From: a virus
Taxonomy: Duplodnaviria > Heunggongvirae > Uroviricota > Caudoviricetes
Length of the DNA stretch: 18,204 bases
Virus record (IMG/VR): IMGVR_UViG_2737471864_000007
Location: 1-18,204 of that record
Reading direction: 5' to 3' (one strand)
In this document: piece by piece, positions 2,430 through 17,389 of the stretch
How the letters are laid out: each line of letters begins with the position of its first letter
Position numbering within the stretch: position 1 is the first letter of the stretch
Made by a program: the position numbers and the translations under genes
The notes under the pieces: model-generated
Told to the model about the DNA's origin: nothing
The model's database searches: none
What the model saw: only the letters and a program-made list of their open reading frames with translations

Positions 2430-2494
2430 GATAATTATATTGGGTTAGTTGTTAATGACACATTAATACTCCTTTTTCTTCGGTAGCCTCCTTT

Positions 2495-3622
2495 TTAGAA
2501 GGTTACCGTTATCCAATTTTTACCTCGATCATCTCGATATTTAGCTGTCTGGTTTAGAGACTTGTGGCCAAGCAATTTCTGAGTATCAATACCTTGACCT
2601 CCGTAGAGACGTTCGGACAAGGAACGTTGTTCGTGGAATGTCGCTGGAGTACCATCACCCCAATCAATTCCTGCTAAATCTCTCGCTTTACTAAAATTCA
2701 TCGTCAATGTATTGGCTGTAACCTGCGCGCCACGTTCAGCCTGTGAAGTAGTACGAAAAAAATGTACAAGGTATGGGCTGACTACATAGTCACGACAGCG
2801 GGCTACTACATCGCGCAAACTCCAGTTGATCGCATTGAGACGCAGGGAAAGCGGGATGGCGATTTTGCTACCGGTTTTTTCCTGGATGACATGGAGATGA
2901 TCATCCCAAATATCGCTAAATTTCATACGCGAGATATCACCTAACCTCTGGCCGGTAACCAGTGCTAACAGCATGGCATTCCCCATATAACGATGACTGG
3001 CATCTGCGATATCAAAGATTTTTTGCCATTCTTCAAGACTTAACCGTTGTCGGGTAATTTTTCTTCTGGGCTGTTTGGTCGCTAATGCTGGATTATAGCC
3101 TGGAGGGACTTCCCCGTAGTGTTGTGCCTCCTTGAATACATCAATTAGAACGGAGCGGACTACTTGCGCCATCCTCGGTTGCCCAGCAGTGATATACTCG
3201 TCAAGCAATTGTGCGATATCCCTTACATCAACGGATGAAATTAACTTCATTCCTGCTCGCTCCCTGAGCAAGGACACTGGTTTAGCTTTCTGTTTATAGG
3301 TGTTGAGCTTTATATCACCACTTTTCAGTCTGTCATCCTGGATTGCTTGATAGCGATCTAACCAGGTTGATGTTGTGATTGCTTTTCCTTTGCTGGTTGC
3401 GATCCTGTCACTGATAGCCAGAATCTGCCGGGTTCTTTGCTCAGCCAGGCGTGTATTGGCCTCAGTGGCAATAGCAATGGCTTCCGCTTCGTTTGTGCCC
3501 AAAGAATGGAACTTCCCGGTCACTGGATGCTTATATCGCCAATAGACTTTATTTACTTTTCTGCTATAAAGCGGATACAAGTTCGGGACTGAAACATTAT
3601 TTTTACGTGGTCTGGCTGCCAT
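2495..3622 (-). CDS. int: Tyrosine site-specific integrase, lambda Int family
   Basis: 375 aa. N-terminal arm-binding-like region and C-terminal catalytic region ending HEQRSLSERLYGGQGIDTQKLLGHKSLNQTAKYRDDRG, closely resembling the lambda Int C-terminus including the catalytic Tyr context. Overlaps xis at its 5' end as in lambda. Confidence 0.9.
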   Translation of the reverse strand: MAARPRKNNVSVPNLYPLYSRKVNKVYWRYKHPVTGKFHSLGTNEAEAIAIATEANTRLAEQRTRQILAISDRIATSKGKAITTSTWLDRYQAIQDDRLKSGDIKLNTYKQKAKPVSLLRERAGMKLISSVDVRDIAQLLDEYITAGQPRMAQVVRSVLIDVFKEAQHYGEVPPGYNPALATKQPRRKITRQRLSLEEWQKIFDIADASHRYMGNAMLLALVTGQRLGDISRMKFSDIWDDHLHVIQEKTGSKIAIPLSLRLNAINWSLRDVVARCRDYVVSPYLVHFFRTTSQAERGAQVTANTLTMNFSKARDLAGIDWGDGTPATFHEQRSLSERLYGGQGIDTQKLLGHKSLNQTAKYRDDRGKNWITVTF

Positions 3623-3848
3623 TACTTAAAATCCTCTGTAGAATAATGGAATCACTTTTCTTGATGACAGGAGTAACTAACTCCCCAACTAACTCTGCGT
3701 CCTCACGCACTCGCCATAGTCGACCTTGTTTCATTGCCGGTGGACAAAATAAATTCTGCTTAGCATAACGACGCAATGTGGACACACTTGGAGGATTACT
3801 CCTAAATTTTTCCGCAGCCCATTCCTCAAGTGTCAGCATTTGAAGCAT
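3603..3848 (-). CDS. xis: Excisionase (Xis, lambda-like)
   Basis: LTLEEWAAEKF...VSTLRRYAKQNLFCPPAMKQGRLWRV parallels lambda Xis (LTLQEWNARQ...TVRRWVRE..IFPPPVKDGREY). Start taken at the ATG at 3848 (GAGGT about 10 nt upstream); alternative in-frame starts at 3863 and 3839. Overlaps int start. Confidence 0.75.
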   Translation of the reverse strand: MLQMLTLEEWAAEKFRSNPPSVSTLRRYAKQNLFCPPAMKQGRLWRVREDAELVGELVTPVIKKSDSIILQRILSNGSQTT

Positions 3849-3903
3849 TTTTGATAACCTCATTTCTTTTGCTACACAACTATTTCACTAGTTAATTTCG
3901 CTG

Positions 3904-4440
3904 TCAGGATTGCTTATGTATCTTATGCAGCTCTTTAAAACGTTCCATAAACATCCCGTAGGCATGGCCCGGAGCCAGTGGAATAACTTTGAATATCTCT
4001 GTTGCCGGGATACCTTCCAGTACTGGCCAGAAAGAGCCATCATCAAGCCCGAGATCGCGGCGTTCGGTTGCCAACATGATGAGATCGGCATATTTCACAG
4101 GTGTACTCATAACCGGGGGTAACCCGTATTTCTCACGGATTACGGCGTCTATTTTTTCTTCCATCCGTTTATAGTCGGGAAGAAGGTGTTTCAGTGGTGC
4201 GGGGATGTCCTGACAATATGCTTCTGTTGCATCATGCATTAACGCTTCAAAAGCAAATTCCTGCGGTACCAGCTGGCTGCAAAGCACCGCATGTTGGGCG
4301 ACGCTGTAGAAGTGTGAAAGATGTCCTGCAAAGCGACAGATATTTGAAAGGGAAACCGCGATATCGTTAATAACGATGTCGTCTTTATTTATCTTGTCAT
4401 AATAAAAATGCTTCCCGGAAAAAGTTTTAATAAATGACAT
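3904..4440 (-). CDS. yfdR: HD-domain phosphohydrolase, YfdR-like (prophage CPS-53/KplE1 family)
   Basis: 178 aa from the ATG at 4440 (GGAGA 6 nt upstream); the track's longer form uses an upstream GTG. HD-type H..HD metal-binding context (ALMHDATEAY). Identity to E. coli K-12 YfdR is from recollection of sequence, size and gene order; needs BLASTP. Confidence 0.75.
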   Translation of the reverse strand: MSFIKTFSGKHFYYDKINKDDIVINDIAVSLSNICRFAGHLSHFYSVAQHAVLCSQLVPQEFAFEALMHDATEAYCQDIPAPLKHLLPDYKRMEEKIDAVIREKYGLPPVMSTPVKYADLIMLATERRDLGLDDGSFWPVLEGIPATEIFKVIPLAPGHAYGMFMERFKELHKIHKQS

Positions 4441-4567
4441 TTTGTTCTCCACGTATATGCGCTGCACCGCGCTGAATTTTGGTTAAAGAAAACCCTCGCC
4501 ATCAGGTGATTATTGAGTCAATTATGTTTCCATAAATGCCCCCGCAGGGGCATTTGCAGTAATGAAA

Positions 4568-5392
4568 TCAGGCGTTGAAAGTACCAATAAAGGTTTTTAC
4601 TTTGCTGTCTTTGAATTTTTCAACTAGCAGATCACGAAATTCGTTAGCCATTTCTTCCTGTACTGCTTCCAGCTGAATAATGCGCTGAACCAGTACAGGG
4701 CGATCACCAGTGATAATGCTGAGTCGTAATTTAAACGGACGTTCTTTCAGGCCTTCAAACGGAACGCATTTAAATTCAAATGCCACTGGCATAATGTCTT
4801 TGGTCTTCGCTTCGACAGACTCCATCAGGGAGCGTTTGCCGCTGAAGTCATTGTCTTCAAAATCAGCAGTCTGGTTCGCTTCAATTGTGATTTTACGGAT
4901 CGCTGCAGCCGCTTTGGTTGCCTGAATGGCGTCACCATTAGCATCAAAGCCCACAAGGTAGTCTGCCCAGTCTTCAATCCATTCTGCCAGTGACTTCTGG
5001 GAGTTACGTTCGCCGTTAACAGACAACAGAGCAGAGAACGGGGCTGTCTTTTTCAGTTTGAGAGTGGCGGTGTTATCTGCGTGACCTGGTTCATCAATAG
5101 TACCCAGGTTAAGTACACTGACGGCACGCATATTATCAGCATCGATAAAGCAGCCGGTGCCTTTATCTGCAAGATCTTTAGAATAACGGGTAAAGTCATC
5201 GATGTTGGCAGTGGAAAGCGCACCACGGAAACGGAAGCGATTTAAATTAAATTTTTCCAGATCATGAATGCGGAAATTCTCAGGCAATGCTACAGCATCG
5301 GCACCAATCTTATTGATAATTTCATTAACACCCTGAGCAGAAATAAGGGCATGGATTTGATTAATTGCGGTTGCGTCTAAGTTCTGAGACAT
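4568..5392 (-). CDS. yfdQ: YfdQ-like protein (DUF2303 family), function unknown
   Basis: 274 aa, ATG at 5392 with GAGGA 8 nt upstream. Size and position between yfdP-like and yfdR-like genes match the K-12 CPS-53 order as I recall it; needs BLASTP. Confidence 0.75.
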
Positions 5393-5457
5393 AATAAGTC
5401 CTCACTATATAAAGATATTCAGTGATGAGATAAATAATCAGTTTATTAATAACGATA

Positions 5458-5820
5458 TTAACGACCTGCTGCGCGGAGTTTTCCGTCAGGCTCACCGGCA
5501 AGAGTCAGTAATTGTCCCTGGTCTTCCTGCAGAATAGTCAGGCGACCACCGCGATTGACATACATCGGCGTTTCTGTGGTGTCTTCTTCGGAAATTTTCC
5601 CGCGGTTAGTCGGGCGAACATATGAGAGTTTGTGTTTGATTTTCACACGGTTCTCATCAAATGGTTCGATTTCCAGGTTGAGTGAGACCTTACCTTTGGT
5701 TTTCGTGTTCATCACACCGGAAGCGACTTCACTGAGAACTGCGCCGATTTTGGTTTCAAATACGCCGCCGTCCAGCTCCCCGATAAATGCCTGCACATCA
5801 GTACTGCGTTCGCTAGCCAT
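5458..5820 (-). CDS. yfdP: YfdP-like hypothetical protein
   Basis: 120 aa starting MASERSTDVQAFIGELDGG at the ATG at 5820, with AGGAG 8 nt upstream. The track's 226-aa form extends into the GC-rich ORF-free segment with an Arg/Cys/Pro-rich, non-protein-like translation, so the extension is rejected. Confidence 0.65.
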   Translation of the reverse strand: MASERSTDVQAFIGELDGGVFETKIGAVLSEVASGVMNTKTKGKVSLNLEIEPFDENRVKIKHKLSYVRPTNRGKISEEDTTETPMYVNRGGRLTILQEDQGQLLTLAGEPDGKLRAAGR

Positions 5821-5870
5821 TTTGCTGCTCCTCATCATATCGACCCTGCAAGGCCGATTAGTTTCTCCAC

Positions 5871-6074
5871 AAAACAGAGAAGAACACCTGCGGTGGCAGC
5901 CGCCCGGATGGATTGAGTTATGAGCCCGTCGTCCGGTGATGTTCTTCTCTGTTTTGTAAAAAGGACGGTACCAGCCGGAAGCAAGGGTACAAGCTGGTAC
6001 CGCCAGGACTACACACAGCATAAAGTTGTGGTGCCGGGTGCCTCCCGGTGCCTGGCGAAGGTTGCACACCAGGC
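5871..6074. other. GC-rich ORF-free segment with multiple perfect inverted repeats; candidate structured RNA or MITE-like element
   Basis: 16-bp perfect inverted repeat AAAACAGAGAAGAACA (5871-5886) / TGTTCTTCTCTGTTTT (5940-5955) around a 53-nt GC-rich spacer. 9-bp perfect stem GGTACCAGC (5967-5975) / GCTGGTACC (5993-6001). 6-bp stem GCCTGG (6050-6055) / CCAGGC (6069-6074). No convincing ORF in any frame. Confidence 0.3.
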
Positions 6075-6219
6075 GGGTGGGTATCCACAGAAGGTCGACT
6101 GTCAGCCTCAACCTTAACCCGCGTGCGCTGAGCCGCATTCACCACAACGCTAAGGATTCTCTCTGGTTGAAAATACTTAGCTGTTATGTGCCTGCTTTTA
6201 GCCACATCAGGCGAGGTGG

Positions 6220-6272
6220 ATCTGGTTATTCCCCAACAATAAGGATTCGGTTAATCTGGTTATCCCCAACAA
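6220..6272 (+). repeat. Two direct repeats ATCTGGTTAT(T)CCCCAACAA, 34 bp apart, just upstream of the ORF at 6289
   Basis: Copies at 6220-6239 and 6254-6272. The associated motif TAAGGATTC also occurs twice (6151-6159, 6240-6248), and CTGGTTGA at 6163-6170 is a partial third copy. Confidence 0.6.
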
Positions 6273-6288
6273 CGCAAAAGGAAAAGAA

Positions 6289-6723
6289 ATGTCCGGTAAT
6301 ATCTATACGCTGTACAAATCCCACTGTGAAAATGTTGGAAAGTATCGGGGCATTGAAATCAGTGGGGTAGTGTCATCAGTCGAAATAAGCAAAGTTGAAT
6401 CAAGAGCAACATTACTTACTCTTCTGGACCTTGTCTTACATGAGCACCGGAAGAAATTCGGCACTCCCTATAATCAGTTGAATGGGAAAAAGGCTCTGGT
6501 TCACCTTATTCTGATGAAGCATCACTGGATGCCAAAACAGATTAATGAGATGAAATTTGATGAACTTCTTCTTTCAATTCAGGATGAACTCACGCTTGAT
6601 AAAATAAGCGTAACCGCCCAGAAATTTTTAGATTATCGAGACTGGAGATCACAAATTCATCACTTTGATGATTTTGACGAAAATGAATGGGATCCTAATT
6701 TGTCTGCACAATATCTAAAGTAG
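6289..6723 (+). CDS. Hypothetical protein, 144 aa, acidic C-terminus; AT-rich gene oriented against the leftward early operon
   Basis: ATG at 6289 with AAGGA 7 nt upstream. Protein-like translation with no recognisable motif. 3' end overlaps the convergent small ORF 6695-6901 by 29 nt. Confidence 0.6.
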   Translation: MSGNIYTLYKSHCENVGKYRGIEISGVVSSVEISKVESRATLLTLLDLVLHEHRKKFGTPYNQLNGKKALVHLILMKHHWMPKQINEMKFDELLLSIQDELTLDKISVTAQKFLDYRDWRSQIHHFDDFDENEWDPNLSAQYLK

Positions 6724-6901
6724 CATCCTGTGATAAAACTGTGATTTCCTGATCCAGTTTTTTTAAGGAGCCTATTGTTTCCTGTCGATAAGACAGCACT
6801 TCACGAAGCTGGTTTATAGCTGCCAGCTTCTTTGTCATCCACTCGTAAATTTCCTCATCTGTGTAGCCAGGCGCGACGATTTTTGGTTCTGTTTTGTGCA
6901 T
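6695..6901 (-). CDS. Small hypothetical protein, 68 aa; first gene of the putative leftward (pL-like) operon
   Basis: ATG at 6901 preceded by a strong GAGGAGGTG Shine-Dalgarno 5-6 nt upstream; the track's longer form starts at a TTG. Helical-looking, not Arg-rich, so not an obvious N homolog. Confidence 0.55.
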   Translation of the reverse strand: MHKTEPKIVAPGYTDEEIYEWMTKKLAAINQLREVLSYRQETIGSLKKLDQEITVLSQDATLDIVQTN

Positions 6902-6947
6902 TTCACACCTCCTCAAGTTATCAGTTACTTGTTGATGGGGACCAGAT

Positions 6948-6959
6948 TGTTAAAGAGCT
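6948..6959 (-). promoter_or_regulatory. boxA-like element GCTCTTTAACAA; candidate antitermination (nut-like) site on the leftward transcript
   Basis: Minus-strand 12-mer matches the rrn/lambdoid boxA consensus TGCTCTTTAACAA at 12 of 13 positions. Lies between the OL-like block and the first leftward ORF. No convincing boxB hairpin identified. Confidence 0.4.
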
Positions 6960-6960
6960 A

Positions 6961-6984
6961 AGCGTCCTGTAGGGCGCTTTTTTG
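6961..6984 (+). terminator. Rho-independent terminator (plus strand)
   Basis: AGCGTCC-TGTA-GGGCGCT stem (7 bp, one G-U pair) followed by TTTTTT. The same hairpin on the minus strand has a C-A mismatch and no U-tract, so it is directional. Confidence 0.55.
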
Positions 6985-7058
6985 TTGCTAACGAATCATC
7001 CTGGACTTCATATGCCCCAGGCGGCTACTTCGTGGGCGTCCTGCCTGTTCGTTGTTTT

Positions 7059-7120
7059 AACACCTTTAAGTTGTAATTTAGTTGTGGCTTTGAATATTGT
7101 CAACAACTTTATGTGGTTTG
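7059..7120. promoter_or_regulatory. OL-like operator/promoter region
   Basis: Block AACACCTTTAAGTTGTAATTTAGTTGTGG (7059-7087) plus ACAACTTTATGT (7104-7115). Both recur in the cI-cro intergenic region; contains AAGTTGT/ACAACTT inverted half-sites. Confidence 0.5.
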
Positions 7121-7166
7121 AACGAGTAGCCAAGGAGTGCAAGGATTATCAAAAAAAGGAGGTTGT

Positions 7167-8057
7167 ATGGAAGACGCGCTTTACGCTTTTAATTACACAC
7201 AGAACCGGGACAAGTTATTTGCTAACTTGATTAGCATCATTGATGGAATCATTGCAGATGGAGTTGTCCGTGAAGAGGAGGTTCTTTACTTAGATACATG
7301 GTTACTTGAAGCAAAGCAGATTATCAATAATGGAGTTATAAAAAGTCTATCAGCACGGGTGTCGGATATTCTTGCGGATGGAATAATCACATCAGAAGAA
7401 CGTGATGACCTTAAAAATAGCCTTCTCCAAATACAGAGGGAAATTCTTGATATCCCTGAAATTGATTTTTACTCCAAGGATGTAGATGTCCATTTACTTA
7501 ATGGACTATGTAAAGGATTAATTGCTGATCGGAACTTAACTCAAGAAGAAATAAGATATCTTAATTGGTGGCTTGAGCAAAATGGAGCTTTGAAGAACAA
7601 CTACCCAGGAAAAAAACTTTATGCACTTGTAAAGGAAATTCTTAAAGATGGGGTTATTACTGAAGATGAGAGTTTAACTCTACATAAGGCATTAGTAGAC
7701 TTCACAGGATGTGACTTGGAAAGTGGGGTGGTGGATGGTTTGGCGACCAGGCTGCCTATTGATGTAGGGGCTTCGATAGAGTTAGAGGGTAAAACCTATT
7801 GTCTTACAGGCACTTTTGTTGCAGGAAAGAGAGCCGTAGTTGAAAATTTGATTAAAAATGCTGGTGGGAACATCAGTAGTGGAATTACTCAAAAGTTGGA
7901 TTTTTTAGTAATTGGGACGCTTTCCTCCCGTGATTGGAAATTCTCAAGTCACGGAAGGAAGATCGAAAAAGCTATATCTTATAGGGATGATAATGGTGCA
8001 AAACTTAAAATTATTTCTGAAGAAATGCTTTTCGATGCATTACCAAGTTCGCGATGA
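7167..8057 (+). CDS. TerB-like helical-repeat protein with C-terminal BRCT domain; AT-rich cargo gene between OL and cI
   Basis: ATG at 7167 with AGGAGG 4 nt upstream; the track's form starts at a GTG at 7137. Four repeats of the pattern (A/K)DG.I(T/R).EE...L (IADGVVREEEVLYL, LADGIITSEERDDL, IADRNLTQEEIRYL, LKDGVITEDESLTL). C-terminal GKTYCLTGTF...GGNISSGITQKLDFLVIG...GRKIEKA...GAKLKIISEEMLFDAL resembles the LigA-type BRCT fold. Convergent 18-nt overlap with the cI 3' end. Confidence 0.75.
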   Translation: MEDALYAFNYTQNRDKLFANLISIIDGIIADGVVREEEVLYLDTWLLEAKQIINNGVIKSLSARVSDILADGIITSEERDDLKNSLLQIQREILDIPEIDFYSKDVDVHLLNGLCKGLIADRNLTQEEIRYLNWWLEQNGALKNNYPGKKLYALVKEILKDGVITEDESLTLHKALVDFTGCDLESGVVDGLATRLPIDVGASIELEGKTYCLTGTFVAGKRAVVENLIKNAGGNISSGITQKLDFLVIGTLSSRDWKFSSHGRKIEKAISYRDDNGAKLKIISEEMLFDALPSSR

Positions 8058-8726
8058 CCAGAATACCCTACCTATAACATGAATTCTGGCTCGTCTATCT
8101 TCAAAGGTGAGTATTTCATCTGGGTACTCATCTTTGTTGAAGCTTCTAAGAATCAAGCCACCGTCAGGTAAGTTGATAAGTATTTTAACCCTTAGCAATA
8201 CACCATCTCGTACGGCATAAAGATCGCCATCACGAATAGGAACGGTTTGAGAAATATCAACGGCAACAAGATCTCCATTATTGAGAACCGGTAATAAACT
8301 GTTCCCCCATATTTTTACGATCTTGGCATTAGATGCACATACGCCAGATTTTCTCAAATCTGCTCTTCTTAACGGAAACCAGTCAATAGCTGATTCAACT
8401 ATTTCAGCCAGACATCCGTTACCTGCCGATAACTCGACATCTAAAACAGGAATGTTTACGAAAATATCGGGGTCTAATGCGGTGCTTTCTGCTTCTTTTA
8501 CAACAAGATCAGGTATGGATGCGTTATCTTCAATACCAAGTTGTAACCACTTTTGTGATACACCTAAAACTTTTGCAATTTCTTTAATTTTGCGCGGTTG
8601 TAGAGTTTCGCCATTCTCTATTTTGGCTACAGATTGTTGTGAAAGTCCAATTTTTTCAGCTAGTTGAGCTTGGCTCATGCCAGCTTTCTCTCTACCTATC
8701 TTTAATCGTTCTGCCAGTGTTTTCAC
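8040..8726 (-). CDS. cI: CI-like prophage repressor (XRE-type HTH + LexA/S24 peptidase-like autocleavage domain)
   Basis: 228 aa. N-terminal HTH (LAERLKIGREKAGMSQAQLAEKIGLSQQSVAKIENGE) and C-terminal S24-like region (GNSLLP...). GTG start at 8726 with a GAGAGGGA SD-like sequence. Divergent from cro. Confidence 0.85.
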   Translation of the reverse strand: MKTLAERLKIGREKAGMSQAQLAEKIGLSQQSVAKIENGETLQPRKIKEIAKVLGVSQKWLQLGIEDNASIPDLVVKEAESTALDPDIFVNIPVLDVELSAGNGCLAEIVESAIDWFPLRRADLRKSGVCASNAKIVKIWGNSLLPVLNNGDLVAVDISQTVPIRDGDLYAVRDGVLLRVKILINLPDGGLILRSFNKDEYPDEILTFEDRRARIHVIGRVFWSSRTW

Positions 8727-8755
8727 AACATATCCCTCTCTTTTTTGATGAGGTT

Positions 8756-8850
8756 ACAACTTTATGTTTTAGCTTTCCAACACCTAAAAGTTGTGATAAA
8801 AGTTGTTAATGTTGTATTCTTGCAACTCGTAACAACTTAACTACCAAAAA
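8756..8850. promoter_or_regulatory. OR-like operator/promoter region between cI and cro
   Basis: ACAACTTTATGT (8756-8767) and block AACACCTAAAAGTTGTGATAAAAGTTGT (8779-8806) match the OL-like region; a further ACAACTT at 8832-8838. Divergent cI and cro starts flank it. Confidence 0.55.
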
Positions 8851-8861
8851 AGGAGAAAGCT

Positions 8862-9110
8862 ATGACACCTGAGCAATTAGCCTTATCGGAGGCAATCGCT
8901 CTGGCTGGTGGTCAATCAGAATTGGCTCGGAAGCTCACAGCCAGCAGCGGTCATTTAGTAAAGCAACAACATGTCTGGAACTGGTTGAACAGAGAAAAGC
9001 GTCCCCCTGCAAAGCTCTCGATATTCATTGAAAAGACCACTGGCATATCAAAAGAAAAATTACGTCCAGATATTTTTCAAAAGATTAAAGATTCATCAGC
9101 TGAAAAGTAA
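8862..9110 (+). CDS. cro: Cro-like HTH regulator (YdaS/Cro family)
   Basis: 82 aa, ATG at 8862 with AAGGAG upstream. HTH-like GGQSELARKLTASSGHLVKQQ. Position immediately right of OR and divergent from cI. Confidence 0.75.
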   Translation: MTPEQLALSEAIALAGGQSELARKLTASSGHLVKQQHVWNWLNREKRPPAKLSIFIEKTTGISKEKLRPDIFQKIKDSSAEK

Positions 9111-9132
9111 CCACAGTTTTAAGGAGATAGCC

Positions 9133-9690
9133 GTGGGTAAGCATCACTGGAAAATAGAAAAACAGCCTGAGTGGTACGTGAAAGCTGTCAGAAAAACTAT
9201 CGCGGCGTTGCCGGGTGGTTACGCTGAAGCCGCTGACTGGCTGGATGTAACAGAGAACGCTTTATTCAACCGCCTTCGTGCAGATGGCGATCAGATTTTT
9301 CCGCTGGGATGGGCAATGGTTTTACAGCGTGCTGGTGGCACTCACTTCATTGCTGATGCTGTGGCGCAGTCTGCAAATGGCGTATTTGTGTCTCTTCCTG
9401 ACGTCGAGGATGTGGACAACGCCGATATTAACCAGCGTCTGCTGGAAGTCATTGAACAGATCGGCAGTTATTCAAAACAGATTCGTTCAGCAATCGAAGA
9501 CGGTGTAGTGGAACCGCATGAGAAGACAGCAATTAACGACGAGCTGTATCTCTCAATTTCGAAGCTGCAGGAGCATGCAGCACTGGTCTACAAAATCTTT
9601 TGCATTTCAGAAAGTAATGACGCCCGCGAGTGTGCAGCTCCGGGCGTCGTGGCGTCGATTGCTTCTGGTTGTGGAGAAACTAACGCATGA
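9133..9690 (+). CDS. CII-like regulatory protein (YdaT-like family)
   Basis: 185 aa from the GTG at 9133 (AAGGAG 6 nt upstream). The track's longer form starts inside cro and is rejected. Position after cro matches the Rac-type racR/ydaS/ydaT arrangement as I recall it; family assignment tentative. Confidence 0.6.
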
Positions 9691-10025
9691 ACAGTTTAAC
9701 AACACACTACCGTCGCTCGCAACTGATTGCGCTTCCTGTACCGGGTGGAAAAGCGAAGGTGGAATATTGCTATGCAGTGAATGTACCAGGTGACAGGGAA
9801 ATTGTAACCCACAGCTTTGCAGAGTGGGCTGTGGGTGATTTCAACCGGCAGAAGGAGACAGTCCTTTGCGACAAGTTAACCGCTGGTTCAAAGATCACTA
9901 CGGAGTGCCCGTCAGAGTCATTCGTTGGGAGCCGGAAACACAACGGGTTATCTACCTCCGCGAAGGTTATGAGCATGAATGCTTCAGTCCGCTCGAACAG
10001 TTTCGTCGTAAATTCAGGGAAATAG
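9687..10025 (+). CDS. Hypothetical protein; possibly frameshifted or overlapped by an alternative-frame ORF (9866-10045)
   Basis: ATG overlaps the cII-like stop (ATGA). The C-terminal third of the translation looks non-protein-like, while a second frame (TTG at 9866 after AGGAG, stop at 10043-10045) reads ...[58 protein letters not shown]. Confidence 0.35.
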
Positions 10026-10034
10026 AGGTCGGTC

Positions 10035-10304
10035 ATGAGCACTAAATTAACCGGCTATGTATGGGATGGTTGCGCTGTATCAGGCATGAAGTTATCCAGT
10101 GTGGCAATTATGGCCCGCCTGGCTGATTTCAGTAATGACGAAGGTGTGTGCTGGCCATCAATTGAAACCATTGCCCGTCAGATTGGCGCGGGGATGAGTA
10201 CCGTCAGAACGGCTACCGTGGCATTTGAAGAGAAGTATGGCTCCCAGCTGGAGCTGATATTTCGTTTTATCGATCGTGCGCTGGCAATAGGCGTACTGGC
10301 GTAA
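10035..10304 (+). CDS. Short HTH protein resembling the N-terminal domain of phage/plasmid replication initiators (HTH_36-like); probable remnant of the replication module
   Basis: 89 aa. KLSSVAIMARLADFSNDEGVCWPSIETIARQIGAGMSTVRTA matches the typical pattern of this winged-helix class (...ALADHANDDG.CWPS.ETLA...G.S.RTV.RA). Ends directly before the Q-like gene. Confidence 0.55.
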   Translation: MSTKLTGYVWDGCAVSGMKLSSVAIMARLADFSNDEGVCWPSIETIARQIGAGMSTVRTATVAFEEKYGSQLELIFRFIDRALAIGVLA

Positions 10305-10317
10305 GTGGAGACGCAAA

Positions 10318-10896
10318 ATGATTAATCCTTCCGAAGTTGGTAAATCCGGGGAAATGGCACGACTACGTACACTGGAAAGTGTATGGATACAGGGCAAACT
10401 GCGTATGTGGGGGCGCTGGTCATTCATCGGCGGCGGCTCAGGCGGCAATATGTTTAACCAGTTGCTGGCCTCCGGGAAAATCACCAAGACAGCCATCAAT
10501 GACGCTTTACGTCGCATGAAGAAGTCAGGCCTGACAAAACCAGAGCTCGAAGCGTTCTTTCGTGAAATTATCGATGGCAAAAATAAGACAGGCATTTCGT
10601 TCTGCTCAGATGATGAGGGTGTATGCATTGATGGCGTTATCGCGGCTGTGCTGATCTCAAATGGTCATAACGGATTGTTTGATGTGCTACTGGACAGATA
10701 CCGCTATCGCAAGAGCAAACGTCTCATGGCAGAGCAACTTCAAAAGCGCCATCCAGAATGGTGCTACATGACCTGCCGCCGCCGAATTGATTCCTGGCTA
10801 AGTTTGGCAGAATTCATGCTTTACGCACCAATGTGTGATGCATTCGGCACAAATAGCAGCAGATTTAAGTTGCAATGTGAGCCAGGAGGTGCTTAA
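10318..10896 (+). CDS. Putative late-gene antiterminator (Q-like) with Cys pairs
   Basis: 192 aa. Position immediately upstream of a terminator and the lysis cassette. Two Cys pairs (CSDDEGVC, CYMTC) are compatible with a zinc-binding Q-type protein. Assigned by position and architecture, not by recognised homology. Confidence 0.5.
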   Translation: MINPSEVGKSGEMARLRTLESVWIQGKLRMWGRWSFIGGGSGGNMFNQLLASGKITKTAINDALRRMKKSGLTKPELEAFFREIIDGKNKTGISFCSDDEGVCIDGVIAAVLISNGHNGLFDVLLDRYRYRKSKRLMAEQLQKRHPEWCYMTCRRRIDSWLSLAEFMLYAPMCDAFGTNSSRFKLQCEPGGA

Positions 10897-10946
10897 ATTG
10901 TGTTACGCTCGGGACGCAAAAGCGAACAGAGCAACAAACATTAAGA

Positions 10947-10970
10947 ACCCGCCAGCGTGCGGGTTTTTTG
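10947..10970 (+). terminator. Rho-independent terminator downstream of the Q-like gene (tR'-like)
   Basis: ACCCGC-CAGCGT-GCGGGT stem followed by TTTTTT. Confidence 0.6.
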
Positions 10971-11009
10971 TTATCATTACCTTTTAAACTTCTAATGGAA
11001 GGTAATGAT

Positions 11010-11582
11010 ATGTGGTTAGGGATTCCTTTTATCTATGTTCAGGAACGGCTGGCAGACACAATTAGCATCAGTAAAATACCATCTATTTCTATAGAATCTT
11101 CATTCTCCTCCGAAACGATTATAGCCGCATTTATTAGTGGATTGGTTCCAGCACTGATATCTTTGTATGTGATTAGACAAAATAACGAGTCTGTCCGATA
11201 TCAACAAAAGCAAGAGAATAAAAGACATTATTCTGCGCATTTAAGGGTGGTAGTTAGCGAGTATGCATACCAACTTAATAAAGTTAAAGAGATACATGCC
11301 GAATGGGTTTCTGTTAGCACAACAATGATCCAATATAAGCTAACAAGCTTAGAAGAAAAAATGTCTGAGGCTCTATTAGAACTGGAAAGATTTAAAGTTA
11401 GCTTGTTAATTTCTATTCCTGATGATGAAGATGGTGCATTGTTTAAGAAATCAATAAATACCATCTCAGAAAAGCTATCTTCATTAATTAAGGGGAGGCA
11501 TATATCAATGGTTGATGGAATGGGATGGGCTGGCCTTTATATGTCATTCATTTCAGATGCTAATAAGTATCTAAATAAATAA
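11010..11582 (+). CDS. AT-rich moron: membrane-anchored helical protein, function unknown
   Basis: ATG at 11010 with GGAAGG about 7 nt upstream; alternative in-frame ATG at 10995; the track's form uses a TTG at 10968 inside the terminator. One predicted TM helix (IIAAFISGLVPALISLYVI) followed by a charged helical region. Flanked by terminators on both sides. Confidence 0.6.
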   Translation: MWLGIPFIYVQERLADTISISKIPSISIESSFSSETIIAAFISGLVPALISLYVIRQNNESVRYQQKQENKRHYSAHLRVVVSEYAYQLNKVKEIHAEWVSVSTTMIQYKLTSLEEKMSEALLELERFKVSLLISIPDDEDGALFKKSINTISEKLSSLIKGRHISMVDGMGWAGLYMSFISDANKYLNK

Positions 11583-11604
11583 AATATATTTTATTAAAAT
11601 ATCA

Positions 11605-11633
11605 AAAGCCACTTAATTGTGGCTTTTTGTTTT
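11605..11633 (+). terminator. Rho-independent terminator downstream of the moron
   Basis: AGCCAC-TTAATT-GTGGCT stem followed by TTTTT G TTTT. Confidence 0.6.
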
Positions 11634-11674
11634 CCCTCTTTTTGAGAGGACTCACAGCAATAAGAGGGGGCTAA

Positions 11675-12070
11675 ATGTCCGATCCTGTTTCTGGCACTAC
11701 GGTTGCCGCTGGTGGCCTTATGGGAGCCAGTGTTTTTGGTATCGCAACTGGTATTGATTATGGCGTGGTGTTTGGCGCTTTCGCAGGAGCTGTGTTCTAC
11801 GTAGCGACAGCAGCAAACATCAGTAGGATGAAGTTGGTTGGCTATTTCGTGACATCGTTTATTGTCGGCGTTCTTGGCGCTGGGCTTGTTGGTTCGTACC
11901 TTGCCAAATGGACAGGCTACAGCGACAGGCCACTTGATGCTCTCGGCGCAGTGGCAGTAGCTGCGTTGGCCATCAAACTTCTTACCTTCATCAACAGTCA
12001 GGATCTAGGAAGCCTGTTCAGTATGCTTTCGCGATTGCGTGGAGGAGGGACCAGCAATGGTAACAAGTGA
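11675..12070 (+). CDS. Putative holin (multi-TM small membrane protein)
   Basis: 131 aa, Gly/Ala-rich hydrophobic segments consistent with 3-4 TM helices. AAGAGGGGG SD upstream. First gene of the lysis cassette. Confidence 0.65.
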   Translation: MSDPVSGTTVAAGGLMGASVFGIATGIDYGVVFGAFAGAVFYVATAANISRMKLVGYFVTSFIVGVLGAGLVGSYLAKWTGYSDRPLDALGAVAVAALAIKLLTFINSQDLGSLFSMLSRLRGGGTSNGNK

Positions 12071-12338
12071 TCCTTCAGCGATGATCAATGCGGGTATTTG
12101 CGCGGTCATTGTAATTGCTCTGATGTTTTACCAACGTGGCGGTGCCAGACATCGCCCGATAGTTTCTCTTCTCGCTTATTTCACGGTGCTGGTTTATGCC
12201 AGCATCCCGTTCCGCTATCTGTTCGGCCTCTACCAGGAATCACACTGGCTGGTGGTCATCGTTAACATCCTGATATGCGCCGCCGTGCTATGGGCTCGGG
12301 GAAACGTGGCGCGTCTTATTGATGCTCTGAGGCACTAA
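12057..12338 (+). CDS. Second lysis-cassette membrane protein (holin/antiholin-like)
   Basis: About 93 aa from the ATG at 12057 (GGAGGAGGGA SD 6 nt upstream); the track's form starts at a GTG at 12039. Three hydrophobic segments. Overlaps the holin stop and the endolysin start. Confidence 0.55.
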   Translation: MVTSDPSAMINAGICAVIVIALMFYQRGGARHRPIVSLLAYFTVLVYASIPFRYLFGLYQESHWLVVIVNILICAAVLWARGNVARLIDALRH

Positions 12339-12952
12339 TGAACCAATCACAATTTCAACAGGCGGCTGTTATTAGCGCCGGGTTAGCTGCGCGCTGGTTT
12401 CCGCACATTGATGCGGCGATGAAGGAATTCGGCATTACAGCACCAGCGGATCAGGCAATGTTTATCGCTCAGGTAGGCCATGAGTCGATGGGGTTTAGCG
12501 CCGTAGTTGAAAATTTTAACTACACACCATCTGCGCTGGTGGCGACGTTCGGAAAGAGGATCACACAGCAGCAGGCTGATGCCCTTGGCAGAACATCCGG
12601 ACATGCAGCTCGTCAGGATGCTATTGCCAATCTGGTGTATAGCAACCGACTGGGTAACAAAGCACCCGGTGATGGCTGGAAATATCGTGGTAGAGGATTA
12701 ATTCAAATCACTGGCCTCCATAATTATCGCATCTGTGGCGCGGAGCTGAAGTTAGATCTGGTGACTTCACCTGAACAACTTGAACAGGAACTACAGGCCG
12801 CGCGCTCAGCTGCATGGTTCTACACCTCTAAAGGCTGCATGATCTACGGTGCCGATATTAATCGTGTTACGCGTATCATTAACGGCGGTCTGAACGGTAT
12901 TGAGGATCGTAAAGTCCGATACAACAAGGCGCGGGCGGCGCTGCTGGTATGA
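12338..12952 (+). CDS. Endolysin, glycoside hydrolase family 19 (chitinase-like lysozyme)
   Basis: 204 aa. GH19-type motifs FIAQVGHESMGF...NF.Y...YRGRGLIQITGLHNY. Start overlaps the upstream stop (TAATG). Confidence 0.8.
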   Translation: MNQSQFQQAAVISAGLAARWFPHIDAAMKEFGITAPADQAMFIAQVGHESMGFSAVVENFNYTPSALVATFGKRITQQQADALGRTSGHAARQDAIANLVYSNRLGNKAPGDGWKYRGRGLIQITGLHNYRICGAELKLDLVTSPEQLEQELQAARSAAWFYTSKGCMIYGADINRVTRIINGGLNGIEDRKVRYNKARAALLV

Positions 12953-13341
12953 AGATGAGTTATTGGGCGCTCATTTTAACGTTTATTGCTTGTGTTGCTG
13001 GTGGTCTTGTCTGGTCAGCGAATCACTATCATGGAAAGTTTCTGGAGGAGCAGAAGCGTGCTGACGCTGCGGAACAGCGAGCTGATTCTACTGAAGCTAT
13101 CACCGCGAATGTCCTGCGAACTATGGCAATAACGAACATCATTCAGGAGGCGAATCAACATGCAAAACAGCAGATCGCACTGGAGTCACAGAGAACCCAG
13201 GAAGATATCAAAGTGGCTATTGCGAATGATGATTGCGCTTCACGTCCTGTGCCTGCTACCGCTGCTGACCGGTTGCGGAAGTACGCGGACAGTTTACGTG
13301 AGCGATCCGGTGGCACCCCTGCCAGCCAGCCTGACTTCTGA
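12949..13341 (+). CDS. Rz-like inner-membrane spanin (i-spanin)
   Basis: 130 aa. N-terminal TM (WALILTFIACVAGGLVW) followed by a charged coiled-coil-like region. Start overlaps the endolysin stop (ATGA). Confidence 0.7.
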   Translation: MKMSYWALILTFIACVAGGLVWSANHYHGKFLEEQKRADAAEQRADSTEAITANVLRTMAITNIIQEANQHAKQQIALESQRTQEDIKVAIANDDCASRPVPATAADRLRKYADSLRERSGGTPASQPDF

Positions 13342-13498
13342 TACTCCAGTACCGTTTATACCCAATCCGCTGACGTATGGTACCAGTCTGGAGTTGAATG
13401 TTGCTCTATTGTCAGCCTTGGGACAATGTAATTTTGATAAAACTGGAATCAGAAATATTGAATCACGGCGCGCTATTTTGCATTCGAAAGACAAATAG
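13226..13498 (+). CDS. Rz1-like outer-membrane lipoprotein spanin (o-spanin), overlapping the 3' part of the Rz-like gene in another frame
   Basis: Lipobox LLTGC after a short signal peptide (MMIALHVLCLLPLLTGC). Pro-rich mature region. Starts inside the Rz-like gene and extends past its stop. Exact start (13226 or 13229) uncertain. Confidence 0.6.
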   Translation: MMIALHVLCLLPLLTGCGSTRTVYVSDPVAPLPASLTSDTPVPFIPNPLTYGTSLELNVALLSALGQCNFDKTGIRNIESRRAILHSKDK

Positions 13499-13866
13499 CT
13501 CGAGTTATATTTTTCATTATCGTTGCGAATGCTCCTAATAAAGCTGTGTATTATGGTAATTTTATAAAGCCTATGGGTTTAAGTTCAGATGCTAGCGTTT
13601 TTATAGCGTAATGTAGCAGCTTACATAAAATATGCATCGTGATTAACTATTAGGCCAACCTTTTGGACCAATATGAAAGTGGAAGTTTATACAAATCGTT
13701 TGTCGATGATTAAACATGTGTCTAGTAGCGCTAGTCATGAACAGGTTTATTACGTATCATTTTGTGTAGATTATCGAGAGTACAACTAGTAGAGCAGCTA
13801 ATCTTTAGATAGTGCCAGTGATGTTCACTTGCGATAAACTAACCTTTTCATTCAGTGGAGGTTATT

Positions 13867-14301
13867 ATGTGGCATACATTACTTAACTGGCCTTGGGGAA
13901 CTGTGTGGTCAGCTGTATCGGCTTTAGGTTCAATTGTAACTGTTACATTAGGTTTTTGGGCAATGAATGTTTGGCGGCGACAGGAGGCTCTGAAGGCCAA
14001 AATGGCTCTGAAAATGGCAGTGGCTGATTATTCAAATGCATTATCACAACTACCTTTATCTCTTAGTCGTAATGTTCGTATTGAAAAAAGGGCCGAGCTA
14101 CGAGAGTTAAATCATAAATTAAATGCTGTTAATAATGCTTTTTTGATATGCGAACATATGTTGGAAAAATACCCACGTGTAAACAGCGGTTGTCGTTCTT
14201 TATCTGTTGCCCACAAAGAATATATTAGAATGAGAGATAATAGTATTCAGGCGAAACATATTTGTCATAATATTCTTTCAGAGCAGTTTGTATTCAAATG
14301 A
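13867..14301 (+). CDS. AT-rich moron: membrane-anchored helical protein, function unknown
   Basis: About 144 aa from the ATG at 13867 (GGAGG 6 nt upstream). N-terminal TM (WSAVSALGSIVTVTLGFWAMNVW) then a helical, Lys/Arg-rich region. Preceded by about 360 bp of AT-rich non-coding DNA. Confidence 0.55.
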   Translation: MWHTLLNWPWGTVWSAVSALGSIVTVTLGFWAMNVWRRQEALKAKMALKMAVADYSNALSQLPLSLSRNVRIEKRAELRELNHKLNAVNNAFLICEHMLEKYPRVNSGCRSLSVAHKEYIRMRDNSIQAKHICHNILSEQFVFK

Positions 14302-14428
14302 AAATGAACGATTGGTATTTACTTGCCGTTTATTCATTGGATTGAAAAGTCTATTTAACAAACCGTGTTAAAGCGGTTTCTGATTGCAGTTATGGTTAGA
14401 TATTTAACGAAAACTACAGGGATAATAG

Positions 14429-14779
14429 ATGCCTCCACGAACCCCAAAAGCCTGCCGCGTTCGCGGCTGCCGCCATACCACGACTGACCCGTCAGGCTAT
14501 TGCGAAAGCCACAAAAGCGAAGGCTGGAAGCAATATAAGCCAGGCCAGTCCCGACACCAGCGCGGTTATGGTTCTAAGTGGGACGTTATCCGCGCGCGTG
14601 TGCTGAAGCGTGACAAAGGCCTGTGCCAGTTGTGCCTGCGTGCCGGTGTGGTGCGCGAGGCGAAAACCGTTGACCACATCATCCCTAAAGCGCATGGCGG
14701 CTCTGATGCCGACAGTAATCTGCAGAGTCTGTGCTGGCTGTGTCATAAGGCGAAGACGGCCCGTGAACGGCTGAAGTAA
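14429..14779 (+). CDS. HNH endonuclease (phage terminase-associated)
   Basis: 116 aa. Cys pairs (CRVRGC...C.SH) and the HNH core DHIIPKAHGGSDADSNLQSLCWLCH. Located immediately upstream of terS, as in HK97-like cos phages. Confidence 0.85.
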   Translation: MPPRTPKACRVRGCRHTTTDPSGYCESHKSEGWKQYKPGQSRHQRGYGSKWDVIRARVLKRDKGLCQLCLRAGVVREAKTVDHIIPKAHGGSDADSNLQSLCWLCHKAKTARERLK

Positions 14780-14805
14780 GAACCAGTTCCCACTGCCAGA
14801 GGGGA

Positions 14806-14866
14806 GGGGCGGGTCAAATCCCTGTGACCTGACGTCTTCCGGACTGCCCGCCCCATCGTTTTTTTA
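14806..14866 (+). other. GC-rich long-range stem plus T-tract between HNH and terS; candidate cos-region element or terminator
   Basis: GGGGCGGG (14806-14813) pairs with CCCGCCCC (14847-14854), followed by ATCG and a run of seven T. Confidence 0.3.
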
Positions 14867-14904
14867 TACCCGCGAAAAATGAAATTTAACCAGGAGTGCC
14901 GCAT

Positions 14905-15399
14905 ATGGCTGGAACGGCGGGGCGTTCCGGGCGTCGCCCCAAGCCAACGGCGCGCAAGGCGCTGGCCGGAAACCCCGGCAAGCGAGCCCTGAATAAAGAT
15001 GAACCTGTTTTTACGCCCATCAAAGGTGTTGAGCCACCGGAGTGGTTCGCTGAAGAAGATCTCCCTCTCGCCACGATCATGTGGCAACTGACAACCAAAG
15101 AACTCTGCGGTCAGGGCCTGCTGTGCGTGACTGACCTCGCGGTGCTTGAGCGGTGGTGCGTGGCCTACGAGTTCTGGCGACGTGCCGTGAAAAATATTGC
15201 CAGACAGGGCAACACCATCACCGGTGCAATGGGCGGTATGGTCAAAAATCCGGAGCTGACCGCCAAAAAAGAACAGGAGTCCGAGATGAGCAGTACGGGG
15301 GCAATGCTCGGACTCGACCCCAGCAGCCGCCAGCGTCTGATTGGCCTGGCGGGGAAGAAGAAAGCCACTAACCCGTTTCTGAAAATTATCGAATCATGA
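14905..15399 (+). CDS. terS: Terminase small subunit (P27-like family)
   Basis: About 164 aa from the ATG at 14905 (CAGGAG upstream); the track's form starts at a GTG at 14896. Basic N-terminus. Stop overlaps the terL start (ATGA). Confidence 0.75.
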
Positions 15400-17129
15400 G
15401 CCGGAAATCTTACCCCAACGTAAATGCTGCAAATCAGTATGCCCGGGATGTCGTGCGCGGAAAGATTATTGCCTGCCAGTTTGTGATTCAGGCCTGCCAG
15501 CGCCATCTTGATGACCTGATGGCGGAAAAAAGTAAGTCGTTTCGTTACCGCTTCGACAAGGACCTGGCTGAACGGGCCGCCAAATTTATTCAGCTGTTGC
15601 CGCACACCAAGGGTGAGTGGGCATTTAAACGGATGCCCATCACGCTGGAGCCGTGGCAGCTATTTGTGATCTGCTGTGCGTTTGGCTGGGTCAATAAAGG
15701 CACCCGGTTGCGCCGCTTCCGGGAGGTGTATACCGAAATTCCCCGTAAGAACGGCAAATCGGCAATCTCTGCCGGTGTTGCCCTGTATTGTTTTGCCTGT
15801 GATAACGAGTTCGGCGCGGAAGTGTATTCCGGTGCCACGACGGAGAAACAGGCGTGGGAAGTCTTTCGTCCGGCACGACTGATGTGTAAACGCACACCCA
15901 TGCTGACGGAAGCGTTCGGGATTGAGGTTAACGCCTCAAACATGAACCGTCCGGAGGATGGTGCGCGGTTTGAACCGCTGATCGGTAACCCCGGTGATGG
16001 TTCATCACCCCACTGTGCCGTGGTGGATGAATATCACGAGCACGCCACAGATGCGCTTTACACCACGATGCTTACCGGGATGGGGGCGCGACGCCAGCCA
16101 CTGATGTGGGCCATTACCACCGCCGGGTACAACATTGAGGGGCCGTGCTACGACAAACGGCGGGAAGTCATCGAGATGCTCAACGGCTCGGTGCCAAACG
16201 ATGAACTGTTCGGGATCATCTATACCGTTGATGAAGGTGACGACTGGACCGACCCGCAGGTGCTGGAAAAAGCCAATCCAAATATTGGCGTGTCGGTTTA
16301 TCGCGAATTTTTGTTAAGTCAGCAGCAGCGTGCGAAAAATAACGCCCGTCTGGCAAACGTCTTTAAAACAAAACACCTCAATATCTGGGTGTCGGCGCGT
16401 TCGGCGTATTTCAACCTGGTGAGCTGGCAGAGCTGCGAGGATAAATCACTGACCCTTGAGCAGTTCGAGGGGCAGCCGTGCATTCTGGCCTTTGACCTGG
16501 CGCGTAAGCTGGATATGAACAGCATGGCGCGACTTTATACCCGCGAGATTGACGGTAAAACGCATTACTACAGTGTGGCCCCGCGTTTCTGGGTACCGTA
16601 TGACACGGTGTACAGCGTCGAGAAAAATGAAGATCGCCGGACAGCCGAACGCTTTCAGAAATGGGTGGAAATGGGCGTTCTGACCGTTACCGATGGTGCG
16701 GAGGTGGATTATCGCTACATCCTCGAAGAGGCCAAAGCGGCGAACAAAATCAGCCCGGTCAGTGAGTCACCCATCGACCCCTTCGGGGCGACCGGGCTGT
16801 CACATGACCTTGCTGATGAAGACCTGAACCCCGTCACCATCATTCAGAACTACACCAACATGTCCGATCCGATGAAAGAGCTGGAAGCGGCGATTGAATC
16901 GGGGCGCTTTCATCATGACGGCAATCCCATCATGACCTGGTGTATCGGCAACGTGGTCGGCAAAACCATTCCGGGTAACGATGATGTGGTGAAGCCCGTC
17001 AAGGAGCAGGCGGAAAACAAAATCGATGGTGCAGTTGCGCTGATTATGGCGGTTGGCAGAGCCATGCTGTACGAGAAAGAAGACACGCTGTCTGATCACA
17101 TTGAGTCCTACGGGATCCGCTCGCTTTAA
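15396..17129 (+). CDS. terL: Terminase large subunit (ATPase/nuclease)
   Basis: 577 aa. Walker A-like GKS context ([12 protein letters not shown]) and Walker B-like hydrophobic-DE (AVVDEYHEH). Size and position after terS. Confidence 0.85.
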
Positions 17130-17140
17130 CTGAGGTAATT

Positions 17141-17323
17141 ATGATCATGCTGATTCTCGCGCCTCTGGTGGGCGTGCTGGGTGCGCTTTTGCTGGCGTAT
17201 GGTGCCTGGCTGATTTATCCCCCGGCGGGTTTTGTTGTTGCCGGGGCGCTGTGCCTGTTCTGGTCGTGGCTGGTGGCGCGATATCTCGACCGTACACAGT
17301 CGTCTGTCGGCGGAGGTAAATAG
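17141..17323 (+). CDS. Small two-TM membrane protein, hypothetical
   Basis: 60 aa. GAGGT SD 4 nt upstream of the ATG. Two hydrophobic helices. Sits at the apparent junction between the terminase and tail genes. Confidence 0.45.
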
Positions 17324-17389
17324 TGTTCTTTTCGGGATTATTTCAACGAAAAAGTGACGCACCGGTGACCACGCCAGCAGAGCTGGCGG

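Follow-up and report, generated by a model that had tools for sequence, protein, structure and literature searches.

Organization of the interval between ymfL and the Q-like gene

We analyzed an 18,204-nt stretch of a Caudoviricetes genome (IMG/VR record IMGVR_UViG_2737471864_000007, positions 1 to 18,204), referred to here as the window, and concentrated on the interval between the cII-like gene ymfL and a Q-like antiterminator gene, where a first-pass annotation had proposed that the replication genes were deleted. The window was typed by open reading frame (ORF) listing, by Pfam, PHROG and PADLOC scans, and by BLAST against complete Escherichia coli genomes. Sequence comparison identifies it as an e14/SfV-like lambdoid prophage of E. 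coli. Related loci and records compared with the window carry L-numbers, and the parent records are L002 (the prophage of CP062211), L001 (CP180607) and L008 (ON470584, vB_EcoM-689R6). The interval holds the following features.

9133-9690, plus strand: ymfL, cII-like (Pfam Phage_CP76, E 1e-13; PHROG 101 'CII-like')
9687-10025, plus strand: ymfM homologue (PHROG 1170)
9866-10045, plus strand: DUF4222 ORF of 59 aa (Pfam E 9e-19), inside the ymfM region in another frame
10035-10215, plus strand: 5' remnant of an O-like replication initiator gene (nt 1-181, codons 1-60), matching L001 and L002 exactly or almost exactly as far as 10215
10214-10215: deletion junction 1, a TA shared by CGGcTAtCG (initiator) and CGGaTAcCG (DUF968)
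10216-10304, plus strand: 3' remnant of a DUF968/YdfU HNH-type gene (last 29 codons and stop), 100% identical to L002 9007-9095
10318-10896, plus strand: intact Q-like antiterminator gene (Pfam DUF1133, E 2e-97; PHROG 753, E 2e-70)

The distance from the ymfL stop (9690) to the Q-like start (10318) measures 627 bp, in agreement with the roughly 630 bp first noted. The ORF at 9687-10025, called questionable in the first-pass annotation, is the ymfM homologue, with 111 of 112 residues identical to K-12 YmfM, the SOS-inducible division inhibitor SfiC of e14 (bioRxiv 10.1101/2020.11.19.390815). Within the overlapping pair at 9687-10045, both ymfM (112 aa) and the DUF4222 ORF have family support, and PGAP annotates the DUF4222 ORF in relatives. 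The Q-like protein belongs to the Q family (Phage_antitermQ, 35.6 bits against a cut-off of 26); its gene follows the DUF968 stop at normal spacing and is 99.9% identical to L002 at the DNA level.

A chimeric gene marks a 4.35-kb deletion

The 89-aa ORF at 10035-10304 is an in-frame chimera, made up from 60 codons of a 313-aa initiator and 29 codons of a 329-aa DUF968/YdfU protein. Pfam places HTH_36 on residues 22-60 (profile positions 7-45 of 55) and DUF968 on residues 58-86 (profile positions 143-171 of 171), while the PHROG family 'replication initiation O-like' covers residues 1-66 and an HNH family residues 57-89. The winged-helix N-terminal domain is incomplete, with 60 of its approximately 78-90 residues kept, and the C-terminal domain is missing, the ORF spanning only profile positions 1-63 of 298 in PHROG 391. 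The earlier description of this ORF as an initiator N-terminus alone thus applies to residues 1-60, but residues 61-89 are the C-terminal end of the DUF968 protein. In annotation, this 'helix-turn-helix protein' should be regarded as a fusion scar and not as a regulator.

Megablast of positions 8000-11600 against complete E. coli genomes gave left matches ending at approximately 10215-10218 and right matches beginning at approximately 10210, and no complete E. coli genome was found to cover the whole segment. One prophage, that of CP062211, has both flanks, 4.35 kb apart; its homology across the DUF968 3' end and DUF1133 (99.9%) picks up again at 10214/10216. Base-level three-way alignment places the crossover at the TA of 10214-10215: with a slash marking the junction, the initiator parent reads ACGGCTA/TCGCACGG, the DUF968 parent GCGGATA/CCGTGGCA, and the window ACGGCTA/CCGTGGCA. 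The TA sits in a 7-of-9 imperfect repeat, CGGnTAnCG, and the exact identity shared by the parents amounts to 2 bp. Missing relative to L002 are positions 4656-9006 (4351 bp), and relative to L008 4342 bp. The lost genes comprise the rest of the initiator, yfdN/PerC, dam, a LexA-like gene, rusA, kilA-N and most of DUF968. Alignment with intact relatives thus shows a single clean gap and bears out the proposed removal of replication genes; the noted absence of nin-region genes also holds, the whole nin-like region lying within the lost DNA.

We therefore consider, with a probability of about 0.93, that an internal deletion by illegitimate recombination in an e14/SfV-like E. coli prophage made the 89-aa chimera and removed the replication origin. 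More specifically, one crossover at TA joined initiator nt 181 to a position in the DUF968/YdfU gene 89 nt short of its end, taking with it the iteron origin, the replisome-recruiting C-terminal domain of the initiator and the nin-like genes.

The junction could in principle have arisen during assembly, as the window represents the end of a draft contig (NCBI NLII01000013.1, GCA_002226905.1, which ends 59 bp beyond it). Two base pairs of exact parental identity are, however, much shorter than an assembler would need for a collapse. In addition, the 89-aa product occurs in identical form on both NCBI contigs and contigs of Logan runs, and a one-residue variant is found in another prophage from another sample. 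An assembly artifact is accordingly a very improbable source of this junction.

The lost replication module

In intact relatives, the full-length initiator protein matches PHROG 391 'replication initiation O-like' with an E value of 1e-135. HTH_36 lies at its N-terminus, and matches to DnaD-like and replisome-organizer PHROGs fall in the C-terminal half. The intact gene carries 5-7 copies of a 15-bp iteron (GTCAAAATCTGACSC) at approximately nt 303-450, followed by an A-rich tract. In phage lambda, the initiator is the O protein, and ori-lambda lies inside the O gene. By analogy, the iteron array is the origin, situated inside the initiator gene. The copy number of the array (L002 4777-4925) varies among prophages, and many database 'proteins' are frameshifted there; in an IMG/VR sample, ungapped divergence points in the initiator gene fall at nt 325-390.

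The iterons present in L002 are absent from the window, where a search allowing up to 3 mismatches detected none and no array of tandem repeats was found. Likewise, no replication Pfam family or gene occurs anywhere in the window. Since intact relatives have no separate P-like gene, the replication 'module' consists of a single O-like initiator gene with its internal origin. The first-pass annotation had argued that there was no room for O/P-like or helicase-loader genes. None is indeed present in the window, but a separate P-like or helicase-loader gene is not found in intact relatives either.

A second deletion and the state of the prophage

A further junction lies in the late region.

17389-17392: deletion junction 2, GATG microhomology, joining portal codon ~23 to sheath nt ~1010

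The match to L008 breaks off at 17392, after 69 nt of the portal gene, and picks up again at 17389, approximately 1010 nt into the 1494-nt Mu-type sheath gene. This separate deletion removed 6212 bp, including the genes for the portal, the protease, the capsid and head completion as well as two thirds of the sheath gene, and the gene stumps left behind are out of frame. The designation of the element as a defective prophage is correct, and is secure because of this second deletion.

The two gaps also bear on whether the element is naturally compact, for instance a satellite-like element with helper-dependent replication that never had these genes. Its coherent operon and the retention of an in-frame ORF would fit such a lineage. 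The chimeric anatomy already contradicts it: the ORF consists of the exact 5' end of a 313-aa gene and the exact 3' end of a 329-aa gene, at 99-100% identity to intact phages. In addition, the stumps of the second deletion are out of frame, and 1577 of the 2002 complete E. coli genomes carrying the region have an intact site. We consider a deletion-free origin hardly credible.

The removal of origin and initiator by a deletion is secure, and we infer that the element can neither replicate nor make particles. Several points weigh against this. The contig stops short of the right part of the prophage, where a replication function could be located, though intact relatives carry none in that part. 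The failure to replicate is read from sequence, and expression and activity of the 89-aa chimera are only putative. Furthermore, the allele may have arisen in a single step or through a deletion at the hot spot described below followed by a 54-bp slip.

The retained genes comprise int/xis, an S24-type repressor, the pR-side operon (cro-like gene, ymfL, ymfM and the chimera), the Q-like gene, the lysis cassette and ShosTA. The Q-like gene now lies only 0.6 kb downstream of ymfL, and an SOS-inducible pR operon with ymfM, together with early Q-like expression, would be expected. From this gene set, SOS induction is expected to lead to division inhibition and possibly lysis, without phage production; the prediction for an induction experiment is therefore no phage, and possibly filamentation or lysis. 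Retention for cargo and regulatory functions is plausible, with ShosTA, the SOS-cleavable repressor, ymfM, the Q-like gene and the lysis genes all intact, although this too is something we infer. Taken alone, the finding represents an ordinary step of prophage decay, leaving an SOS-responsive, immunity-conferring, defense-carrying remnant without origin and head genes, much as in K-12 e14.

A breakpoint hot spot in the initiator gene

The initiator gene is broken in many related prophages, most often at GGGTA/ACC, at nt 234/235 (L002 4707-4712 corresponds to nt 233-238). This hot spot was found at loci L003-L006, L009-L011, L014-L019, L022-L035 and L210, with at least 16 distinct DNA junctions in both directions. 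The window does not break there, but at nt 181 (GGCTA/TCG). Initiator nt 1-234/235 are kept in K-12 e14 (oweE/ymfN), ETEC4073, PCN061, S3 and EC556, where the partners are terminase, kilA-N, two DUF968 sites and a tail-fiber assembly gene, while the part from approximately nt 234 onward is kept in K-12 CPS-53 (oweS) and NCTC9038.

A protein search with the first 100 initiator residues returned 120 clusters, 75 of which diverge right after ...RKARRQG (aa 78) into approximately 50 distinct tails, in a census that is conditioned on the initiator N-terminus and favors long retained N-termini. Among the tails are RusA, DUF968, terminase, capsid, sheath, methyltransferase and PerC, as well as sequence from inside IS3 orfA, the C-terminus of the initiator itself and out-of-frame reads. 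Frameshifts aside, almost no cluster diverges within aa 79-100.

At the DNA level, pattern scans of IMG/VR revealed, besides the K-12 type, 11 distinct alleles in which the retained 5' part stops at GGGTA and the next base is not A. Five distinct 3'-retaining alleles start with TAACCGC, and none starts one or two bases later. Because of these GGGTA-ending and TAACCGC-starting alleles, both halves can be said to keep the TA. A 16-nt pattern scan of IMG/VR gave mostly chance matches in unrelated contigs, which were removed by requiring matching flanks. Among the matches sampled in complete genomes, partial ones ended only at approximately nt 183 or nt 234-240. In a set of 118 IMG/VR contigs retrieved by means of a 24-nt pattern lying 5' of the hot spot, and hence not selected for junctions, 97 were intact through the gene.

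On the partner side, 34 sites were mapped back onto reference phages, and 28 have TA at the junction. Among these 28, G at position -3 is enriched (18/28, against a background of 31% among TA sites, p 3e-4), as is C at position +2 (18/28, background 30%, p 2e-4), and the two occur together in 11/28 (background 10%, p 3e-5). At positions -2 and +1, base frequencies do not depart from background. Together, these preferences describe an interrupted palindrome, G-N-T-A-N-C, with GGGTAACC as the major site and GGATAACC, in rusA, as the commonest partner. At four junctions off the hot spot in these prophages, three cross at or within TA, and junction 2 of the window does not.

Occurrence of the window's junction elsewhere

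The identical 89-aa product was found on a handful of contigs in NCBI and Logan, and the window's junction was not detected among 5426 complete E. coli genomes. A one-residue variant, P0123, is encoded in a different prophage (L259, 10001-10270; Logan ERR7420663 contig 105) that adjoins proBA, differs from the window in integrase and repressor/cro pair, and has a PF03589-type Q gene. Its junction is the same as in the window, ACGGCTA/CCGTGG, with differences at 5/181 nt on the left and 3/89 nt on the right (~3%). One of them, an A/G difference at nt 174, lies 7 nt from the junction and is a polymorphism also seen between intact genes. At the sequence level, this suggests that the same junction formed more than once, by recurrence and not by descent, although very short recombination tracts may also account for it.

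Both parental sites of the window were used elsewhere. The left site, GGCTATC at nt 177-183, is a minor recurrent site, shared by four junctions in related prophages; three other alleles break at nt 181-185 and are joined to other partners (L221, L156 and L257, the latter in strain 2-101 with a minor tail gene). The right site, GATACC, is that used by hot-spot alleles encoding a 107-aa chimera, which are carried by L005, L012, L013 and L028. This allows for a two-step origin, in which nt 235 was joined to the same DUF968 site and a 54-bp in-frame slippage then produced the 89-aa form. Besides the identical right breakpoint, GGCTA (nt 177-181) and GGGTA (nt 231-235) agree in 4/5 bases, 54 is a multiple of three, and the first 60 nt of the DUF968 tail are the same in L013 and the window. 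On the other hand, no 107-aa allele was found in the DUF1133 (Q-like) background of the window, and the presence of the 89-aa junction in two prophage backgrounds would need two such occurrences or very short recombination tracts. A direct event is sufficient and is favored over the two-step route, because nt 181 is itself a left breakpoint with three other partners; we regard the two-step route as unlikely.

Possible causes of the recurrent breakpoints

A sequence-preferring break-and-rejoin activity (a dimeric nuclease with a ligase, a recombinase, or a transposase-like enzyme), as opposed to random microhomology, might have made the deletion, a view that we hold to be possible but somewhat short of an even chance. 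Exchange would take place at TA with a 2-bp overlap and a preference for G-N-T-A-N-C, and would time and again cut short the initiator gene in prophages of the e14/SfV type. Both parental sites of the window fit the motif, with GCTATC in the initiator and GATACC in DUF968. The junction of L259 is identical, with flanking single-nucleotide polymorphisms that match different intact parents, including the one 7 nt away, and the breaks of L221, L156 and L257 at nt 181-185 with other partners point the same way. The approximately 50 chimeric tails at nt 234/235, with which the DNA-level alleles agree, the enrichment of G at -3 and C at +2 among TA partner sites, and the inverted orientation of two partners are likewise consistent with such an activity.

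Other observations count against it. A third copy of the motif in the gene (GGTTAAC, nt 205-211) is never a breakpoint, and junction 2 of the window (GATG) and one L003 junction (AA) are not at TA. The protein census is biased by its conditioning on the initiator N-terminus, and an imperfect microhomology (GG.TA) could explain part of the left-side signal. The att core, pix sites, cos and GGTNACC sites give no explanation, and any candidate enzyme is only putative.

Individual candidates were set aside as follows. The e14 att region, assessed by icd/icdC alignment, bears no resemblance to the breakpoint sites. The Pin crossover sites of K-12 e14 (AAACC-AA/TT-GGTTT) differ in core and flanks, and the cos region (approximately window position 14838, from the starts of the SfIV/SfV records) shows no similarity. 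BstEII-type restriction at GGTNACC fits the hot spot, but only 1/32 mapped independent partners coincide with such a site, with two more lying 9-25 nt downstream of one. Rpn (YhgA-like) nucleases do not fit, given their reported lack of sequence specificity (PMC5350276). Deletion adjacent to an insertion sequence was rejected as well: no insertion sequence end was found at any junction, and in one allele the fusion point lies within IS3 orfA.

Microhomology-mediated illegitimate deletion, including forms in which an arrested fork or a nick fixes one end, shares with these breakpoints the 2-5 bp of common sequence, the one recurrent endpoint and the many partners. It differs in that the partners here form an interrupted palindrome, positions -2 and +1 are unconstrained and both halves keep the TA, since contiguous base pairing alone predicts neither the interrupted palindrome nor the TA kept in both halves. 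The TA-centered, palindrome-flanked breakpoints look more like the target choice of a dimeric enzyme than like contiguous microhomology, which we report as an open side observation.

More tentatively still, and with less than even odds, an undescribed process with GGNTANCC as its best sites may cut the initiator at nt 235 (major) and nt 181 (minor, used in the window) and join it to scattered prophage sites, which would disable replication repeatedly in one manner, the identical junction having arisen independently in at least two prophages. No earlier description of this hot spot was found in the literature. If the breakpoints are enzyme-made, they would reflect a specific mechanism that turns a common E. 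coli prophage family into fixed, non-replicating residents.

Other features of the prophage

Outside the interval, the window contains the following genes and elements.

1-1446, plus strand: ShosT-like gene (HAD, PRTase and Zn-ribbon; PADLOC ShosT, E 2e-14)
1446-2429, plus strand: ShosA-like gene (DprA-like; PADLOC ShosA, E 1e-79)
2495-3622, minus strand: intE-type tyrosine integrase, 375 aa (Pfam Arm-DNA-bind_1 and Phage_integrase), of the length of K-12 intE
3603-3848, minus strand: xisE-type excisionase, 81 aa (Pfam Exc), of the length of K-12 xisE
Between xis and the repressor: early-left genes yfdR, yfdQ and yfdP
8040-8726, minus strand: cI-like repressor (HTH_3 and Peptidase_S24), annotated as XRE family regulator in relatives
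8862-9110, plus strand: helix-turn-helix gene in cro position, YdaS family (Pfam YdaS_toxin, E 8e-15)
10943-10968, plus strand: terminator-like hairpin, a 10-pair stem followed by a T run, just 3' of the Q-like gene
After the Q-like gene: low-G+C gene, two holins, GH19 endolysin, spanins, HNH, small and large terminase, tail-sheath fragment and tail tube

Integration in the 3' end of icd would be expected for this prophage type; relatives L001, L006 and L008 adjoin icd, and the window begins within cargo genes. The cargo (1-2429), of low G+C content (34-37%), lies between the prophage end and the integrase. A PRTase-type ShosT adjoins a DprA-like ShosA, and by sequence this is a ShosTA anti-phage defense pair. 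In the ShosT-like protein (481 aa), the PRTase core is flanked by additional parts, a HAD hydrolase domain at the N-terminus and Top1-type zinc ribbons at the C-terminus.

The integrase is apparently intact, judging by its sequence. The intE/xisE-type module is accompanied by yfdP/yfdQ/yfdR, and positions 2511-7053 are 95.8% identical to L008. Between yfdP and an ECs1072-family gene, a G+C-rich segment of approximately 470 bp (5821-6288) contains implausible ORFs only and is conserved in L008; it has no Rfam match, and the Rfam scan of the whole window gave none. The immunity and early-right genes follow the order repressor, cro-like gene, ymfL, ymfM/DUF4222 and O-like gene, the last only as a 181-nt remnant. 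The S24-type repressor is presumably cleavable during the SOS response. The late genes, including HNH, a P27-type small terminase, the large terminase and Mu-type contractile tail genes, are 96-99% identical to L008, and the Pfam families HNH, Terminase_4, TerL, Phage_sheath_1C and Tail_tube were detected.

The hairpin at 10943-10968 is positioned like tR' of phage lambda. Besides a terminator downstream of Q, a Q-type module would be expected to have a late promoter with a Q-utilization (qut) site; no consensus promoter was detected near the hairpin. Together with a second hairpin at 11604-11627, it brackets the low-G+C (35%) gene at 10968-11627 (190-204 aa, PHROG 18859), which lies between the Q-like gene and the holins, where a moron, an add-on gene with its own transcription, is classically found.

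Comparison with known systems

The initiator gene of the intact relatives resembles lambda O in its winged-helix N-terminus, in the iteron array and A/T-rich tract inside the coding sequence, in its C-terminal domain and in its position directly after the cII-like gene. It differs in that only Pfam HTH_36 matches, in the lack of an adjacent P-like gene and in its 15-bp iterons; the window keeps none of the origin. The intact e14/SfV-like phages and prophages (L002, L001, L008 and the Shigella phages SfII, SfIV and SfV) share 95-100% nucleotide identity with all retained segments of the window and provide both parents of each junction. In contrast to the window, they carry the replication/nin region (4.35 kb) as well as the head region (6.2 kb).

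The deletion is well precedented, and ymfN of K-12 e14 (oweE'-'aaaE), a chimeric replication protein/terminase gene from the same phage family, is its model. The two prophages share the order intE, xisE, repressor, cro-like gene, ymfL, ymfM and initiator remnant. In both, an internal deletion fuses the initiator N-terminus to a downstream gene, more deletions affect structural genes, and defense or restriction cargo lies at the ends, with ShosTA in the window and lit, mcrA and ymfD/E in e14. They differ in the extent of the loss. In K-12 e14, the break lies at initiator nt 234 and the partner is the terminase large subunit, so that the Q and lysis genes are lost too, whereas the window breaks at nt 181 and joins the 3' end of DUF968, and its Q-like, lysis, HNH and terminase genes survive.

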